From the IMG/VR virus record IMGVR_UViG_2703719355_000008: a stretch of DNA of 7,973 bases, one strand, 5' to 3'. Source of the stretch: a virus (Duplodnaviria; Heunggongvirae; Uroviricota; Caudoviricetes). Below the pieces are notes generated by a model that had not been told where the DNA came from, did not search any database, and was given only the letters and a program-made list of their open reading frames with translations. Positions 1 to 7,862 of the stretch are shown here, in pieces. The translations under genes and the position numbers were made by a program. Numbering within the stretch: the first letter of the stretch is position 1; each line of letters starts with the position of its first letter.

Positions 1-72
1 ACAGATAAAGATACAGATAAAGATACAGATAAAGATACAGATAAAGATACAGATAAAGATACAGATAAAGAA
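1..72 (+). repeat. 12-bp tandem repeat (ACAGATAAAGAT) x6, last unit variant; runs off the window start
   Basis: Direct reading: five perfect copies at 1-60 and a sixth ending GAA at 61-72. In frame 1 this encodes (Thr-Asp-Lys-Asp)n continuous with the downstream ORF. Confidence 0.9.
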
Positions 73-672
73 GATCAAAACACTATGGTCCATGGCGTAA
101 AAAACGCCACGAACCAGGCAGGGGATGTTCAGACCGTCAATCCTGGTCAGCCAGCAGGCACGACACCGGAAGCCGATTCAGCGTATGCGCTGAAAGCCGA
201 TTCGGGCGCTGTGCAGCAGGTGATGACCGCAAGGCCGGAGCAATCACTCCAACTGCAGCAGCCTGAAGCCGATTCCGCCATTCAGTGGGAAGCCGATCGG
301 GTAGTCCCGGAAAACACCGGGCAGTCTGTGGGACGAGTGGATTATCCGGATGTGTTCGAACAGGTCTGGCGGGAGTACCCGTTGCGTGCCGGGGCAAACC
401 CGAAGAAATCCGCTTTCAGTGCCTGGAAGGCCAGATTACGCGAGGGGGTGCCACCAGAGGCCATGCTGGATGGCGTGAGGCGTTACGCAAGATATCTGGC
501 GGTTACCGGGAAAACTGGAACGGAATTTGTTCAGCGAGCGACGACGTTTTTTGGACCGGACCGGAATTTTGAAAACCCCTGGTTGCTCCCGGTAAGCGGC
601 ACGAACAACCAGCGTTGTGTTAATCATATTTCTGAACCGGACACCGAAATTCCGCCGGGATTCAGAGGGTAA
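1..672 (+). CDS. Phage replication-associated protein, 5'-partial (C-terminal conserved phage domain; putative replisome organiser/initiator)
   Basis: Frame 1 is open from nt 1 to TAA at 670-672. The C-terminal part (DYPDVFEQVWREYPLRAG...FGPDRNFENPW) resembles, from memory, the conserved C-terminal domain of lambdoid replication-initiator-type proteins. Function is inferred; the true start lies upstream of the window. Confidence 0.6.
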   Translation, partial: TDKDTDKDTDKDTDKDTDKDTDKEDQNTMVHGVKNATNQAGDVQTVNPGQPAGTTPEADSAYALKADSGAVQQVMTARPEQSLQLQQPEADSAIQWEADRVVPENTGQSVGRVDYPDVFEQVWREYPLRAGANPKKSAFSAWKARLREGVPPEAMLDGVRRYARYLAVTGKTGTEFVQRATTFFGPDRNFENPWLLPVSGTNNQRCVNHISEPDTEIPPGFRG

Positions 673-2897: not shown

Positions 2898-2913
2898 TAT
2901 GGGAATTCCCATA
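2898..2913. promoter_or_regulatory. Perfect 16-bp palindrome TATGGGAATTCCCATA
   Basis: Read directly; equals its own reverse complement. Sits between the small-peptide ORF and the putative hok promoter. No U-tract after it, so a protein-binding site is more likely than a terminator. Confidence 0.35.
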
Positions 2914-2927
2914 TCGGGCAAAAACGG

Positions 2928-2956
2928 TTTGCTGTAAAGCGAGAGTTAAGTAGAAT
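2928..2956 (+). promoter_or_regulatory. Putative hok/mok promoter (-35 TTGCTG 2929-2934; -10 TAGAAT 2951-2956; 16-nt spacer)
   Basis: Hexamers read by eye. Predicted start near 2962 coincides with the 5' element (2961-2974) that is complementary to the mRNA 3' end (3337-3351). Confidence 0.4.
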
Positions 2957-3024
2957 TGCTGCGGGTGCTTGAGGCTGTCTGCCTCGGGCATGCCGCCGTA
3001 AGGCAGACAGAGAAAAGCCCCAGT

Positions 3025-3083
3025 TAACATTACGCGTCCGGCAAGACGCTTAACATTAATCTGAGGCCATATCTATGACTTGC
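3025..3083 (-). ncRNA. sok: Putative Sok-like antisense RNA (approximate bounds)
   Basis: Minus-strand promoter-like hexamers: -35 TTGCCT (complement of 3113-3118), 17-nt spacer, -10 TAACCT (complement of 3090-3095), giving a start a few nt inside mok and transcription into the hok leader. This matches the known hok/sok layout. The 3' end is not defined; a GCGTC/GACGC stem lies at 3043-3058. Confidence 0.35.
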
Positions 3084-3287
3084 ACATGTAGGTTAGCCTC
3101 TTACGTGCCGAAAGGCAAGGAGAAGCAGGCTATGAAGCAGCAAAAGGCGATGTTAATCGCCCTGATCGTCATCTGTTTAACCGTCATAGTGACGGCACTG
3201 GTAACGAGGAAAGACCTCTGCGAGGTACGAATCCGAACCGGCCAGACGGAGGTCGCTGTCTTCACAGCTTACGAACCTGAGGAGTAA
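3075..3287 (+). CDS. mok: Mok-like overlapping reading frame (70 aa), in frame with hok
   Basis: ATG at 3075 with SD-like TGAGG 8 nt upstream; N-terminal extension MTCTCRLASYVPKGKEKQA precedes the hok Met, as in chromosomal mok/hok pairs (from memory). Confidence 0.5.
   Translation: MTCTCRLASYVPKGKEKQAMKQQKAMLIALIVICLTVIVTALVTRKDLCEVRIRTGQTEVAVFTAYEPEE
3132..3287 (+). CDS. hok: Hok/Gef-family type I toxin (51 aa small membrane toxin)
   Basis: Translation MKQQKAMLIALIVICLTVIVTALVTRKDLCEVRIRTGQTEVAVFTAYEPEE carries the Hok/Gef signature (TM helix, TRKDLCEV, conserved C-terminus) and is near-identical, from memory, to E. coli HokD/RelF. AAGGAG SD at 3117-3122. Confidence 0.9.
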   Translation: MKQQKAMLIALIVICLTVIVTALVTRKDLCEVRIRTGQTEVAVFTAYEPEE

Positions 3288-3355
3288 GAGACCTGGCGGG
3301 GGAGAAATCCCTCGCCACCTCTGATGTGTCAGGCATCCTCAACGCACCCGCACTT

Positions 3356-3385
3356 AACCCGCTTCGGCGGGTTTTGTTCTTTTTG
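3356..3385 (+). terminator. Rho-independent terminator of the hok transcript (copy 1 of a 23-bp repeat)
   Basis: Stem CCCGC-TTCG-GCGGG (3358-3371) followed by a T-rich tract TTTTGTTCTTTTT. Confidence 0.75.
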
Positions 3386-3427
3386 TGAAAAAAATTCCCT
3401 TAAAGGAGATTTTTTTAACTAAAAAGG

Positions 3428-3455
3428 TTTACTTTGCTTTCGTATATGGTAAATT
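3428..3455 (+). promoter_or_regulatory. Putative promoter of the HTH/peptidase cassette (-35 TTTACT 3428-3433; extended -10 TGgTAAATT 3447-3455)
   Basis: Hexamers read by eye in an AT-rich intergenic region. An imperfect inverted repeat (3485-3501, CTTGC-gttag-GCAAG) lies between the predicted start site and the SD and could be an operator. Confidence 0.3.
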
Positions 3456-3531
3456 TTAGGAATTAGAATTTAAGCGCCCATCAGGCTTGCGTTAGGCAAG
3501 TCTGCTAAATCAACAAATTGAGGATAAAATC

Positions 3532-3891
3532 ATGGCACTCACTGAATTCGGTAAGGCCGTTAGAAAAGCGAGGATCGATACTGACAGTACTCTTCTGACT
3601 ATGTCTCAAGAACTGGGCACTACGCCAGCGTTTCTTAGCGGTTTAGAAACTGGTAGCAAAAAAATACCTCTGAAGTGGGTTAAGAAGATTGATTCTTACT
3701 TCAAGGCCAAAGGTGTAGAAATTGAAGGGTTACAGGAGTTAGCGGCAGTTGCGAATGACTCAGTTCCAGTAAACGGTTTGTCTCAGCAACAGAAAATGCT
3801 TGTAGCGGGATTCGCTAAGTCGCAGTTTACGCCGGAACAGCTAAAGAGTTTTGCAGATTTATTGCAAAAGATTAATAACAATGAGGGGTAA
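3532..3891 (+). CDS. XRE/Cro-type helix-turn-helix transcriptional regulator (119 aa) with C-terminal extension
   Basis: ATG at 3532 with SD GAGGAT at 3521-3526. N-terminus (LTEFGKAVRKARIDTDSTLLTMSQELGTTPAFLSGLETGSKKIP) fits the HTH_XRE pattern. Stop at 3889-3891 is 2 nt before the next gene. Confidence 0.85.
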   Translation: MALTEFGKAVRKARIDTDSTLLTMSQELGTTPAFLSGLETGSKKIPLKWVKKIDSYFKAKGVEIEGLQELAAVANDSVPVNGLSQQQKMLVAGFAKSQFTPEQLKSFADLLQKINNNEG

Positions 3892-3893
3892 TT

Positions 3894-4370
3894 ATGTATC
3901 AAATGAGAGGTAACAGGGTGTCACCGATGCAAGAAGAAGAAATAGCCTACAGAGCTATAAACTTCTGTAATGCTATTGGTCTTACAGCCTCAAAGCGCAA
4001 AAGAAAGCGTTATGATATGTTCTTTGAAAGCCTGTCAATTTATGGGGTTACTCTTGACGTCAGGACCGACAAAGAGTGGGAGGCTCTGACGTATGATCTA
4101 ACTATCGGACATTGTGACCCCGCTTCTCTAACAATTACGGTTCCCAATAAAATATATGTGAATGCTTGCCTTGGGGAAGAGCATGCACTTGCTGTTATCT
4201 TCCACGAGCTAGGTCATTTGCTTCTTGGACACAAAGCAGTTTTACACTTTTCAGTTAAAGAACCTACTCGTATTGAGGATGCAGAATGGCAGGCAGATAC
4301 ATTTGCGGATATCGTACTGGAAACAATTGGCGTGAGAACACAACAGATGTCGTTCGATTTTTATATGTAA
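3894..4370 (+). CDS. ImmA/IrrE-family (COG2856-like) zinc metallopeptidase (158 aa)
   Basis: SD GAGGGG at 3884-3889. HExxH zinc-binding motif FHELGHLLLGH at residues 103-113 (nt 4203-4217), with size and partner arrangement typical of ImmA-like peptidases paired with XRE regulators. Confidence 0.8.
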   Translation: MYQMRGNRVSPMQEEEIAYRAINFCNAIGLTASKRKRKRYDMFFESLSIYGVTLDVRTDKEWEALTYDLTIGHCDPASLTITVPNKIYVNACLGEEHALAVIFHELGHLLLGHKAVLHFSVKEPTRIEDAEWQADTFADIVLETIGVRTQQMSFDFYM

Positions 4371-4371
4371 A

Positions 4372-4396
4372 AGCCCTGCGCTAACAGGGCTTTTAG
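4372..4396 (+). terminator. Rho-independent terminator after the peptidase gene
   Basis: Stem AGCCCTG-CGCTAA-CAGGGCT followed by TTTTA. Confidence 0.65.
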
Positions 4397-4498
4397 GGAC
4401 GGAAAGTGCGCTAACACATTCCGTAGTGTATGGAGATAATCCAATCACAACACTTTTTGTAGACAAGCGAAGTGTAGTGGTTCTCCCAACAAAGTGCA

Positions 4499-4518
4499 AC
4501 CTGTGTGGATTCACAGGT
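4499..4518. promoter_or_regulatory. Perfect inverted repeat ACCTGTG-tggatt-CACAGGT 20 bp upstream of the Cys-rich ORF
   Basis: Read directly: 7-bp arms, 6-nt spacer. Candidate operator or leader hairpin. Confidence 0.35.
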
Positions 4519-4537
4519 GAGCAGGGAAAACGAAATC

Positions 4538-4687
4538 ATGGCAATGGGTACCTGTCGCAAATGTGGCTGTCCATGTGAGATCATTTTTCGCTACTCTGTG
4601 TGTGTAGATGGTGTAATGCGCCACGCGAAAAAAGGGAAGCCTTTCCCGATCCCACTTTGCAGTTGTAGTGGCAAGCACGCAGCTTGA
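4538..4687 (+). CDS. Candidate Cys-rich small protein (49 aa; CxxCxCxC ... C ... CxC)
   Basis: ATG at 4538 with stop TGA at 4685-4687; 7 Cys in 49 aa (MAMGTCRKCGCPCEIIFRYSVCVDGVMRHAKKGKPFPIPLCSCSGKHAA). Weak SD. Followed by its own terminator. The track's longer version (GTG 4505) would start inside the palindrome. Confidence 0.4.
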   Translation: MAMGTCRKCGCPCEIIFRYSVCVDGVMRHAKKGKPFPIPLCSCSGKHAA

Positions 4688-4703
4688 TGTTCAGTACTGA
4701 CAA

Positions 4704-4731
4704 AACCCGCTTCGGCGGGTTTTGTTTTTTC
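4704..4731 (+). terminator. Rho-independent terminator (copy 2 of the 23-bp repeat)
   Basis: AACCCGCTTCGGCGGGTTTTGTT at 4704-4726 is identical to 3356-3378 and is followed by a T-run. Confidence 0.75.
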
Positions 4732-4802
4732 CTGGCATTCTGGTTTACAATTCGCACGTCAGCCTGAACAACTGGCACCTGCTGCGCCAGCAGAGAAAGA
4801 CG

Positions 4803-5081
4803 ATGGCGCACAATACCAAATCACACAATTCTGATAATTCAGCTGTCTTTGCCAGCAGGCACGGGCGGCGTTCCCGCACATTCAAATCTGATTGGTACCA
4901 GCATCCCCCATGTACTGAAGAACAAGCTGAATGGCTAATTCAGTGCTACCGCAGACACGGATACGGGATTAAGAAAGCCCTCAGCCTCGATTATCGTCAC
5001 TGGATAATCTCCGTCAGGCTTCCTTACTCTGAACGCCCACCGCGTCCGTCCCGCACATTCCAGCAACGCATCTGGAGGTAA
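4803..5081 (+). CDS. Hypothetical phage protein (92 aa)
   Basis: In-frame ATG at 4803 chosen because the track start at 4722 overlaps the terminator. Stop TAA at 5079-5081 is 1 nt before the next gene's GTG, implying translational coupling. Confidence 0.55.
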   Translation: MAHNTKSHNSDNSAVFASRHGRRSRTFKSDWYQHPPCTEEQAEWLIQCYRRHGYGIKKALSLDYRHWIISVRLPYSERPPRPSRTFQQRIWR

Positions 5082-5082
5082 C

Positions 5083-6138
5083 GTGCGGGTATTACTTCGA
5101 CCTGTTCTGGTACCGGAACTCGGGCTGGTGATCGTTAAGCCGGGCCGTGAATCCATGCCGGTATTCCACAATACCCGGGTACTGGTGGAGCCGGAACCGA
5201 AAAGCATGCGTAATCTGTCGTCCGGGGTCGTTCCTGCCGTTCGCCAGCCGCTGGCGGAGGATAAATCATTACTGCCATTTTTCAGCGACGAACGAGTGAT
5301 TCGTGCTGCTGGTGGCGCTGGCGCATTGTCTGACTGGTTACTGCGCCATGTTAAATCCTGCCAGTGGCCACACGGCGATTATCACCACAGTGAAACCGTC
5401 ATTCACCGTTATGGTACCGGCGCAATGGTGTTGTGCTGGCACTGCGACAACCAGCTGCGCGACCAGACCTCCGAATCACTCGGGCAACTTGCTCAACAAA
5501 ACCTGACATCCTGGATGATTGACGTCATCCGCCACGCAATAAACGGTACACAGGAGCGGGAGTTATCGCTGGCTGAATTATCCTGGTGGGCGGTCTGCAA
5601 TCAGGTAGCGGACGTATTGCCGGAGGCAGTATTACGTCGTTCTCTGGGATTGCGTGCGGAAAAAATCCGCTCGGTGTACCGCGAAAGCGACATCGTACCG
5701 GGAGAGCAGACCGCCACCAGCATACTGAAGCAGCGCACAAAAAATCTTGCGCTGCTGCCTCACGCCCACCAGCAAAACCCGCCACAGGAAAAGACGGTGG
5801 TCAGCATTGCCGTTGATCCGGAGTCACCGGCTCAGTATCTCCAGCGCCAGAAACCACAACGGGAAGAGATGCCTGTATACACGCGCTGGGTAAAAACGCA
5901 GAAATGCATGACGTGCGGTAATCAGGCAGATGATCCGCATCACATCATTGGTCATGGACTGGGAGGGATGGGAACAAAGGCTGATGATTTGTTTGTTATT
6001 CCGCTGTGCCGTAAATGTCATAACGAACTGCACGCCGGGGTAAAAGATTTTGAAGAAAAACACGGCAGCCAGCTGTTGTTGCTGATTCGTTTTTTAATGC
6101 ACGCGAGAAATTCGGGTGTCCTGAAGTGGAAAGCATGA
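5083..6138 (+). CDS. DUF968/YdfU-like phage protein with C-terminal HNH-like Cys/His motif (351 aa)
   Basis: GTG at 5083 with GGAGG SD 4 nt upstream. C-terminus CMTCGNQADDPHHIIGHG...PLCRKCHNELH resembles an HNH-type zinc-finger nuclease motif. Size and position next to Q match ydfU-type genes (from memory). Confidence 0.75.
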   Translation: MRVLLRPVLVPELGLVIVKPGRESMPVFHNTRVLVEPEPKSMRNLSSGVVPAVRQPLAEDKSLLPFFSDERVIRAAGGAGALSDWLLRHVKSCQWPHGDYHHSETVIHRYGTGAMVLCWHCDNQLRDQTSESLGQLAQQNLTSWMIDVIRHAINGTQERELSLAELSWWAVCNQVADVLPEAVLRRSLGLRAEKIRSVYRESDIVPGEQTATSILKQRTKNLALLPHAHQQNPPQEKTVVSIAVDPESPAQYLQRQKPQREEMPVYTRWVKTQKCMTCGNQADDPHHIIGHGLGGMGTKADDLFVIPLCRKCHNELHAGVKDFEEKHGSQLLLLIRFLMHARNSGVLKWKA

Positions 6139-7067: not shown

Positions 7068-7144
7068 CGTAAAAACTGCTTCAATTCCGGTAAGCTTCGC
7101 AAAGCTGTACCGCGAGGCGAATAGCAGACATGGACATTTGAAAG

Positions 7145-7168
7145 AGCCCGCTTTTTGCGGGTTTTTTT
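7145..7168 (+). terminator. Rho-independent terminator downstream of Q (candidate tR')
   Basis: Stem CCCGC-TTTTT-GCGGG followed by TTTTTTT; about 80 nt after the Q stop. A convincing pR' promoter was not found (TTGACG at 7064-7069 has no good -10). Confidence 0.7.
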
Positions 7169-7614: not shown

Positions 7615-7862
7615 CTATCAGAGAAGTGCTTATTGATCTATGGCTAATACTGTAAAAATATCCAGTTGTGAGTTAATCAACGCTGATTGCCTGGAATTTA
7701 TCCAGACCTTACCGGAAAACTCTGTCGATCTGATAGAAAACTATCAGAGAAGTGCTTATTGATCTATGATTAATACTGTAAAAATATCCAGTTGTGAGTT
7801 AATCAACGCTGATTGCCTGGAATTTATCCAGACCTTACCGGAAAACTCTGTCGATCTGATAG
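7615..7862 (+). repeat. Tandem duplication (~126-bp period; copies 7615-7736 and 7741-7862) of the methyltransferase upstream region plus first 32 codons
   Basis: The two copies differ at only 2 positions (ATGGCT vs ATGATT at the start codon context). Each copy begins CTATCAG and ends CTGATAG, so the junction forms the palindrome CTGATAG-aaaa-CTATCAG. Confidence 0.9.
7640..7762 (+). pseudogene. Truncated duplicate of the methyltransferase 5' end (40-codon ORF, MANTVKISSCELINADCLEFIQTLPENSVDLIENYQRSAY)
   Basis: First repeat copy has its own ATG; it diverges from the intact gene at codon 33 and terminates at TGA 7760-7762, inside copy 2 upstream of the real start. Confidence 0.35.

Follow-up and report, generated by a model that had tools for sequence, protein, structure and literature searches.

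The moron concept reportedly goes back to Hendrix and Juhala. Morons carry their own promoter and terminator and have a deviant GC content (PMC3594210). In T4-type phages, promoter/stem-loop terminator cassettes called PeSLs mediate the insertion, deletion and replacement of genes, and they yield mini-circles (PMC2839356). Mosaicism of lambdoid phages is driven by phage Rad52-like recombinases, and the minimal efficient pairing segment is 23 to 27 bp for Red-beta, against 31 to 34 bp for RecA (PMC3945230). Here we analyze a stretch of 7,973 nucleotides from a tailed phage of the Caudoviricetes (IMG/VR record IMGVR_UViG_2703719355_000008; hereafter the window), which is the early-right (nin-type) region of a lambdoid Escherichia coli prophage. 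In this window, two identical 23-bp copies of an intrinsic terminator, AACCCGCTTCGGCGGGTTTTGTT, bracket a small gene cassette placed directly downstream of a hok/sok toxin-antitoxin locus. Relative to the common empty arrangement, in which hok, one terminator and the gene phrog_1212 follow each other, this second cassette is a precise insertion. We propose that it results from short-homology recombination inside the shared terminator, in a two-cassette array of the nin region, and give this reading a probability of about three in four.

The 23-mer is present exactly twice when the whole window is scanned, both times on the + strand, at 3356-3378 and 4704-4726, and allowing 3 mismatches revealed no third copy there. 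Of 200 shuffles that preserve dinucleotide content, not one gave a 23-mer match, and chance does not account for the two copies. A repeat finder extends the repeat to 27 nt with one mismatch, for a start-to-start period of 1,348. The first copy lies 69 nt past the hok stop codon (3287), and the second 17 nt past the stop codon (4687) of a small cysteine-rich open reading frame (ORF). A preliminary description, made from the sequence alone, had reported these two positions, after hok and after the Cys-rich ORF, and had placed a helix-turn-helix (HTH)/peptidase gene pair together with the Cys-rich ORF between them; a pattern search gives the same positions, and ORFs at 3532-3891, 3894-4370 and 4538-4687 bear out the gene content. 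Folded in context, copy 1 forms a UUCG-tetraloop hairpin of 7 bp followed by a T-run (-16.2 kcal/mol), and copy 2 a UUCG-tetraloop hairpin whose 12-bp stem uses the upstream ACAAAA (-22.7 kcal/mol). Both are called by a consensus terminator scan, with the tail TTTTGTT(T/C)TTT, and both have the sequence features of intrinsic terminators, namely a GC-rich stem-loop and a T-run, 3' of a gene and on its coding strand. Only sok was significant when the whole window was searched against Rfam at E<=1; matches to isrK, rsmX and istR over the two copies were sub-threshold and driven by the terminator hairpin alone.

Copy 1 belongs to hok. The sok/hok leader (2963-3137) matches the Rfam sok family with 114 bits (E 4e-26), and the Hok peptide matches the Pfam family HOK_GEF (1e-23). 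When 2963-3382 is folded, the 5' segment GGGUGCUUGAGG pairs with the near-3' segment CCUCAACGCACCC in the tac/fbi closing helix (z = -8.2), and the terminator hairpin sits 5 to 6 nt after this fold-back helix. Because the classical hok mRNA fold ends directly in copy 1, this copy is the genuine terminal hairpin of the hok transcript. The features of a type I hok/sok toxin-antitoxin locus are thus found in the sequence that ends in copy 1, and not in that which ends in copy 2. The preliminary description had offered, as an alternative, a duplication of a hok-type 3' end. This idea has been dropped: the similarity stops at the 23 to 27 nt of the terminator, and upstream of copy 2 lies the 3' end of the Cys-rich gene, not the hok 3' untranslated region (UTR).

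The nature of the insert appears when occupied and empty sites are aligned. A megablast of positions 2900-5100 (2,201 nt) against 5,426 complete E. coli genomes gave matches in 4,776 of them, but the whole query was found in only 48. Hok-terminator junctions number roughly 12,000 in this genome set. In most genomes the query spans about 853 nt, that is, 2,201 minus 1,348, and the BLAST segments overlap at positions 557-583 of the empty-site reference. The E. coli O121 genome RM8352, for example, reads ...CACTT-AACCCGCTTCGGCGGGTTTTGTT-TTTTCCTGGCATTCTGG..., which is the left flank of copy 1, a single terminator and the right flank of copy 2. In two empty-site prophages (L002 and L010; L numbers designate the compared loci), the terminator and its left flank are identical to copy 1, and the right flank of copy 2, TTTTCCTGGCATTCTGG, is identical to that of the single terminator in empty sites. 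Since a single terminator with both outer flanks exists elsewhere, the window corresponds to the empty site plus a 1,348-bp insert. This insert may be drawn equally well in either of two registers (Table 1), because the crossover may fall anywhere in the 23 bp. Its GC content is 0.37 to 0.43, against 0.50 to 0.58 outside. The preliminary description had proposed that a module was swapped in by recombination at a shared terminator, and had pointed to related prophages and to the GC profile as the places to look. Single-terminator versions are indeed present in most E. coli genomes, with the outer flanks that this proposal predicts, and GC falls across the insert; the recombination itself is deduced from these comparisons. 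It had also considered that the idea would fall if the terminator were a common multi-copy element. On this point the outcome is mixed, as the 23-mer does recur behind about a dozen unrelated phage genes, but is single-copy at each locus except here. Its commonness explains the insertion event and does not refute it.

Searched alone, the module was found in 56 of the complete E. coli genomes and is full-length in 48, a number equal to that of the records holding the whole hok-to-phrog_1212 stretch. E. coli 90-3040, RM12579 and 2013C-4830 are among the carriers. All carriers read in detail have it at the hok-terminator site, and a donor search through the 5,426 genomes revealed no locus with the exact module outside a hok context. 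No relative was found on the plasmids of a plasmid collection, and a phage collection did not contain the E. coli module, its best match being Klebsiella phage ST13-OXA48phi12.4, at 74%. We also examined a sample of IMG/VR loci picked only by the presence of the 23-mer (124 occurrences). Among its hok-terminator loci, 95 were empty and 5 held the module, and the loci with two exact 23-mer copies were module carriers only, with a spacing of 1,348 (1,349 in L120). Among carriers, identity is 98.2 to 100% over the module, 90.6 to 99.8% on the hok side and 82 to 99% on the DUF968 side. Because the module is near-identical, the flanks are diverged and GC drops, we favor a single acquisition over repeated loss of an ancestral cassette; the pattern is consistent with one entry, probably followed by transfer among diverse lambdoid prophages via homologous flanks. 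Secondary decay is seen in two genomes, through an IS1 truncation (L015) and a rearrangement containing HicAB (L014). By descriptive criteria the insert is a low-GC moron: its presence varies between conserved genes, with identical flanks at empty and filled sites, and its base composition deviates from that of its surroundings (0.37 to 0.43 against 0.50 to 0.58).

The same terminator serves as a boundary for other genes. About 98 of the 124 IMG/VR occurrences come after a hok 3'UTR, and another 11 or so lie behind unrelated genes, in equally unrelated surroundings. One diverged relative of the module (L166; amino acid identity 69% for the HTH protein, 54% for the peptidase and 73% for the Cys protein), with no hok nearby, natively ends in AACCCGCTTCGGCGGGTTTTT. 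Moreover, three other cargos at the hok-terminator site are bracketed by repeats of the terminator core, 13 to 20 bp long (Table 1). In the Doc and 1,835-bp cargos, the T-tail of the left copy differs (TTTTTCGT, TTTTTTCA or TTTTTTAT), and in the lipoprotein cargo the left copy is truncated within the 3' stem arm. The right copy of all three has the canonical TTTTGTT tail and the canonical right flank. Differing left tails with a canonical right tail therefore point to reciprocal exchange inside the hairpin, and are incompatible with a target-site duplication. In all eight cargo types examined, the left boundary is inside the terminator or at its end. Some are replacement cargos lacking the right-hand copy (rem, an unannotated 460-nt segment, RelE/ParE plus an HTH gene, and HicAB). 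In some phages a Doc cassette with its terminator is followed by a RelE/ParE cassette, making a stack hok-terminator-Doc-terminator-RelE, and in others a cargo, the terminator and the same right flank are present without hok. At the right-hand end of the Doc plus RelE stack of L057, our script found neither a phrog_1212 match nor a further terminator.

The junction between the hok terminator and phrog_1212-DUF968 is thus a hotspot of cargos (L006/L008/L011, L109/L057/L047, L113, L100, L004, L005/L007 and L014), which also include a C5-methyltransferase with a 459-aa protein. The four hotspot cargos measured (Doc, 1,835-bp and methyltransferase cargos) have a GC content of 0.40 to 0.43. That accessory and defence genes gather in hotspots flanked by conserved prophage genes is an established idea (for example, PMC9122126); our literature search found no published description of the hok-terminator junction as such a hotspot. 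In Klebsiella phage ST13-OXA48phi12.4 (L003), the module has its own, different terminator, GACCCGCATTATGCGGGTTTTTT (L003 5299-5325), and a second hairpin, AAAACCCGCTTCGGCGGGTTTTTT, with the stem-loop of the E. coli repeat, follows some 130 bp later, which shows how often such a hairpin recurs near these cassettes.

How could the cassette have entered? We propose that, before its arrival, it had this very common hairpin as its own terminator, and that it entered by homologous exchange within 13 to 27 bp of identity. A single crossover with a circularised or concatemeric cassette (Campbell-type integration) would suffice; alternatively, two crossovers would be needed with a donor having the cassette between two such terminators. 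The most plausible catalyst would be a phage Rad52-type recombinase. The insertion would have a single origin, and ordinary recombination through the homologous hok and DUF968 flanks would have spread it later. The point directly 3' of the hok terminator would be the first one to spare both the fold-back of the hok mRNA and its terminal hairpin, so that selection may explain the exact position, because an insertion further left would break them. With two terminators, each lysogen-expressed cassette would stop before the downstream Q region. In lambda, N-modified polymerase reads through terminators during lytic growth, and it may do so at both copies here. The direct repeat would also permit precise loss of the cassette.

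Several observations weigh against this scheme. No donor was found with the exact module between two terminator copies or outside hok, and this leaves the left junction, terminator/CTTTTT/GTGAAAAAAA..., without a direct explanation; similarity to the L166 relative starts at GTGAAAAAAA, just six nucleotides (CTTTTT) after copy 1. With 23 bp, the identity barely reaches the length needed for efficient homologous pairing. In Klebsiella and Yersinia, close relatives of the module end in other terminators, and because those terminators differ, the ancestral E. coli terminator had to be deduced from one relative. Since the rem, RelE/ParE and HicAB cargos have no right-hand terminator, exchange between terminators is not the sole route into the site. 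Finally, the HTH and peptidase proteins match the CapH/CapP pair only weakly, with E values of about 0.003 to 0.01 (0.0097 for capH in PADLOC).

Direct repeats of 23 bp allow precise deletion, of which the empty site is the exact expected product, and truncated or rearranged copies of the module exist (L014, L015). The polarity might then be reversed, the two-terminator form being ancestral and the single-terminator sites being deletions between the copies. We judge this improbable: about 95% of hok-terminator loci are empty, across highly diverged flanks, the module of carriers is 98 to 100% identical while their flanks differ by 5 to 18%, the GC content of the insert is foreign to the region, and repeated loss of one ancestral cargo is inadequate to explain three other unrelated cargos at the same point. 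A perfect direct repeat flanking a segment that is present or absent as a unit could also recall a target-site duplication, produced by a transposase or another staggered-cut insertion, the cassette being a non-autonomous mobile element. However, repeat, ORF and profile searches detected neither terminal inverted repeats nor a transposase or integrase in or adjoining the cassette; 23 bp is far longer than any target-site duplication known to us; the repeats of other cargos are 13 and 20 bp long, with unlike left and right tails; the L166 relative natively bears the same hairpin without hok; and the same cassette is absent from other genomic targets in the 5,426 genomes searched. Altogether this origin seems highly improbable.

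Nor do we expect much of a dedicated enzyme recognising the hairpin, whether integron-like, HUH-type, or aided by cleavage by the DUF968/HNH-like nuclease or RusA. It is true that at least eight cargos have a boundary at the hairpin, that cassettes are stackable (hok-terminator-Doc-terminator-RelE), and that an HNH-like gene and a Holliday-junction resolvase gene lie immediately downstream; but the crossover points vary within the hairpin (13, 20 or 23 bp shared), an attC site is longer and has RYYYAAC/GTTRRRY core sites that are missing from the hairpin, no integrase is linked to it, and DUF968 and RusA are ordinary nin-region genes, present at empty sites too. Such an enzyme has, in our view, little probability. 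The attC sites of integrons are 57 to 141 bp long, with RYYYAAC and GTTRRRY core sites, and are associated with a linked IntI integrase and attI. An integron cassette was considered and rejected here, as 18 bp and a tail make up the hairpin, whose flanks, ACAAAAC ... GTTTTGT, are off the core consensus; no integrase was found within 20 kb around the site. Lastly, the two terminators may have converged by coincidence on an optimal UUCG hairpin, the cassette having entered by illegitimate end-joining at the exact boundary of the hok terminator and the gene that follows. That the hairpin is common behind many unrelated genes, and that some cargos lack the right-hand copy, would suit this view. 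Yet the identity runs past the stem-loop into the TTTTGTT tail, over 27 nt with one mismatch, and ends precisely at the junctions; the same bracket also surrounds three other cargos, so that we consider convergence quite unlikely.

A wider reading, which we hold only tentatively and think rather doubtful, makes the UUCG hairpin not just a scar left behind but a generic docking sequence for mobile, terminator-bounded morons of lambdoid prophages and, independently, the intergenic element with the small ORF (see below) a new device. Exchange between flanking copies would release cassettes as circles, which would then enter at any other copy of this terminator. Stackable arrays of hok/sok, Phd/Doc, RelE/ParE, HicAB and XRE-ImmA cassettes could be built in this way upstream of the Q region, as in an integron-like cassette economy that would need no dedicated integrase, phage recombinases being sufficient.

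Table 1. Features of the window and cargos found at the same site in other phages
Feature	Position in window	Size	Strand	Remarks
Terminator copy 1	3356-3378		+	Intrinsic terminator of hok mRNA; stem AACCCGC/GCGGGTT, loop TTCG, T-run; left junction of insert
Terminator copy 2	4699-4726 (23-mer 4704-4726)		+	Extended 12-bp stem GACAAAACCCGC/GCGGGTTTTGTT; cassette terminator, right junction
Insert (cassette plus one terminator copy)	3379-4726, equally 3356-4703	1,348 bp	+	From empty-site alignment
hok/sok type I toxin-antitoxin transcript	2963-3378		+	sok/hok 5' region 2963-3137; mok 3075-3287; hok coding sequence 3132-3287; 3'UTR
Fold-back (fbi) element CCUCAACGCACCC	3337-3349		+	Within hok 3'UTR
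Predicted promoter/operator	3415-3455		+	Palindrome-like TTAACTAAAAAGGTTTAC at 3415-3432, overlapping -35 TTTACT at 3428-3433; extended -10 TGgTAAATT at 3447-3455
XRE-type HTH protein, putative repressor	3532-3891	119 aa	+	PADLOC HTH_VI, 1e-6
ImmA/IrrE-family (Peptidase_M78) zinc metallopeptidase	3894-4370	158 aa	+	PF06114, 24.6 bits (cut-off 22)
Conserved structured intergenic element	4368-4537	170 nt	+	From peptidase to Cys-rich ORF; hairpins and blocks GTGTATGGAG ... TAGTGGTTCTCCCAACAA
Hairpin 1	4368-4395		+	Terminator-like; closes HTH-peptidase operon
Hairpin 2	4399-4424		+	Covarying
Hairpin 4	~4506-4525		+	Within intergenic element
Cys-rich small ORF	4538-4687	49 aa	+	C6-x2-C9-x3-C13 ... 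C41-x-C43; probable output gene
phrog_1212 ORF	4803-5081		+	Conserved right-hand neighbour
DUF968/HNH-like gene	5083-6138		+	Conserved right-hand neighbour
Cargo: 130-aa lipoprotein-like protein		665 bp		13 bp shared, ACCCGCTTCGGCG
Cargo: Phd/Doc-like pair		841-847 bp		20-bp repeat
Cargo: 197-aa plus 290-aa ImmA-like pair		1,835 bp		20-bp repeat

The complete array consists of the hok/sok cassette and its terminator, then of a cassette with an XRE-type HTH gene, an ImmA/IrrE-type peptidase gene, a structured leader and the Cys-rich ORF with its terminator, followed by phrog_1212, DUF968, RusA and Q. RusA and a Q-like antiterminator lie downstream of the DUF968/HNH-like gene, a complete genome with a near-identical locus has the same gene order, and the phrog_1212 and DUF968/HNH-like genes also follow the single terminator in empty-site prophages.

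The HTH gene, which ends 2 nt ahead of the peptidase gene, is labeled 'helix-turn-helix domain-containing protein' in RefSeq, and its orthologues 'XRE family transcriptional regulator'; the pair is kept in Klebsiella, Yersinia and other loci. The peptidase has HELGH at residues 104-108 and a downstream EWQAD-FA motif (E-x2-A-D-x-FA). It matches the phrog_87 metallo-protease family (7e-17), and the RefSeq annotation agrees. With a profile score above the curated threshold and the HEXXH zinc motif, it belongs to the ImmA/IrrE family. A sequence search of the PDB returned nothing for the peptidase and only matches with E>0.2 for the HTH protein, and NCBIfam gave nothing above cut-off. The Cys-rich protein retains its cysteines in Klebsiella, Yersinia, Kluyvera and Atlantibacter copies, at 47 to 84% identity, and falls in only 2 database clusters. 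Its AlphaFold2 model is all-beta (pLDDT 79); profile searches found no family match, and Foldseek against the PDB gave nothing better than E=3.4.

The promoter/operator motif and the TGAGGA Shine-Dalgarno sequence are shared by five relatives, although identity over the rest of this region is about 60%. A generic sigma-70 scan made no call at 3415-3455, so that the promoter is predicted from conservation; the terminator is present. CapH/CapP is a repressor-protease switch (10.1101/2022.04.27.489752). By analogy with it, and with ImmR/ImmA and DdrO/IrrE, the HTH protein would repress the cassette promoter through the conserved palindrome at the -35 region, and the M78 peptidase would cleave it upon a stress or DNA-damage signal, the Cys-rich protein being the output. 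One circumstantial hint for such a stress switch is that copies in Klebsiella phages adjoin dinI, or umuDC and a yedK-like gene. A second comes from six Yersinia loci (L231-L236, ~3978-5150), in which the trio, with TGCGCTAACA loops in its intergenic element, adjoins phage integrase genes, and in one case an excisionase gene; a reverse-transcriptase-trypsin gene is close by in L231. Such a location recalls that of immR/immA in ICEBs1, which suggests that the trio may be a bona fide immunity switch there.

Between the peptidase gene and the Cys-rich ORF lies a structured element that matched no Rfam family. It exists in at least 12 sequence variants, each time with a small ORF downstream, and other copies are found in L003 (4837-5005), L016 (2500-2676), L017 (1516-1696), L159, L160, L166, L174, L182, L224 and L231-L236. 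Hairpin 2 clearly covaries, both partners being altered in five of its eight pairs. Hairpins 1 and 2 have the same loop motif of 6 to 10 nt within nearly every variant, while the motif itself varies between variants: TGCGCTAACA twice in E. coli and Yersinia, and CTAGGA, TGTTGACGCA, CTGAGAA, GTGAGA or CTGGAA, each twice, in others. The exception to this twin-loop rule is the Stx1-phage copy, whose hairpin 2 is a flipped form of that of L154. In Atlantibacter both loops are TGCGTCAACA, the exact reverse complement of the Klebsiella and Enterobacter loops. The conserved TTCTCCCAACAA resembles boxA, and a UCUCC of the element can pair either with an upstream GGAG or with the Shine-Dalgarno sequence of the small ORF. 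We considered and rejected the twin loops as an operator of the HTH protein, because its recognition helix is identical across variants in which the loops differ.

The gene ahead of the element is that of ImmA in some loci and a HicAB-associated gene in others, and in the cI-N interval of Stx1 phages it encodes an unrelated 177-aa protein. In the Stx1 phage SH2026Stx1 (L016 1969-2810) and about 14 IMG/VR loci (L138-L167), it is accompanied by a different ORF of 44 aa (MAHDVNRDDF...), and both follow the uncharacterised 177-aa protein in the cI-to-N ('rex') moron position. As element and small ORF travel with different upstream genes, they form a separable sub-cassette. They could be an undescribed regulatory RNA or DNA device, or a type-I-toxin-like unit. 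A genome-wide scan with the element pattern was too loose: 60 of 63 matches were due to chance, in unrelated phyla, and the real ones were in Enterobacter, Atlantibacter and Kluyvera only.

Three further features of the window were noted outside the array. A sub-threshold isrK-like Rfam match (E 0.75) at 7094-7167 ends in a terminator, AGCCCGCTTTTTGCGGGTTTTTTT, just downstream of the Q-like gene, a position that fits a short transcript of the pR'-leader/tR' type, the target of Q antitermination. Positions 7615-7862 contain a tandem duplication of 126 bp (98% identical), which takes in the ribosome-binding region of a DNA methyltransferase gene and its first ~33 codons and yields a truncated 40-aa ORF (7640-7762) before the full gene, starting at 7766. 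At the very start of the window (1-83), a perfect 12-nt tandem repeat, ACAGATAAAGAT, is present in about 6 copies, in frame with the upstream part of a replication-region ORF, where it encodes a TDKD-type peptide repeat.

The locus offers an unusually clean case of accessory cassette acquisition, resolved to the base pair, with empty and filled sites and a crossover confined to 23 bp, at a point that several toxin-antitoxin or defence-like cargos have reused. If exchange from terminator to terminator is general, shared intrinsic terminators would offer a simple reason for the placement of mosaic boundaries at the ends of genes in temperate phages, and small defence or toxin-antitoxin cassettes could move without a recombinase of their own. 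In practice, the hok-terminator/phrog_1212-DUF968 junction can be used as a landmark for harvesting accessory genes of E. coli prophages, and the XRE, M78-peptidase and Cys-rich trio is an uncharacterised, testable candidate for a stress-switch cassette.

How does the locus compare with described systems? As in the hok/sok-family loci hokD/relF of Qin and hokW of 933W, copy 1 terminates a canonical mRNA with sok, mok, hok and tac/fbi, whereas copy 2 is outside any hok locus and is preceded by sequence unlike hok. The cassette shares with ImmR/ImmA of ICEBs1, DdrO/IrrE of Deinococcus and CapH/CapP the succession of an XRE HTH gene and an M78 (COG2856) HEXXH peptidase gene, as well as a palindromic site at the promoter, which is a predicted one here, and the Yersinia trio adjoins integrase and excisionase genes, like immR/immA. 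It differs from them in that its proteins are short (119 and 158 aa) and have no sequence relative in the PDB, and in that a structured leader precedes the gene of the probable output, a Cys-rich protein of 49 aa.

Concerning the exchange itself, the relaxed recombination promoted by Rad52-like proteins (De Paepe et al. 2014, PMC3945230) resembles what we propose, since it takes place at short identity, 23 to 27 bp being the Red-beta minimum, and since later spread would pass through flanks that are 90 to 95% identical. The published assays, however, used hundreds of bp of diverged homology, so that exchange on one 23-bp patch is an extrapolation from them. The PeSL cassettes (Arbiol et al. 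2010, PMC2839356) are likewise short stem-loop terminators that bracket non-essential genes and serve as recombination substrates, and a circular intermediate such as theirs would be a plausible vector here; the boundaries agree with this model, four cargos being bracketed by the terminator core and eight left boundaries falling in the terminator. But PeSLs are promoter-plus-terminator units of about 50 to 100 bp, from virulent myoviruses, for which mini-circles are known, whereas only a 23-bp terminator is shared in this temperate lambdoid prophage.

Morons of lambdoid and other temperate phages are also close, as the cassette is an independent unit (with a predicted promoter) of deviant GC, variably present between conserved genes. 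In contrast to them, both of its junctions can be placed in 23 bp shared with the preceding cassette's terminator, several cargos use the same site, and no moron that combines an XRE protein with an M78 peptidase and a small Cys protein has, to our knowledge, been described. The terminator duplication is thus a new and well-resolved case of known processes, namely moron acquisition, short-homology recombination and PeSL-like shuffling.

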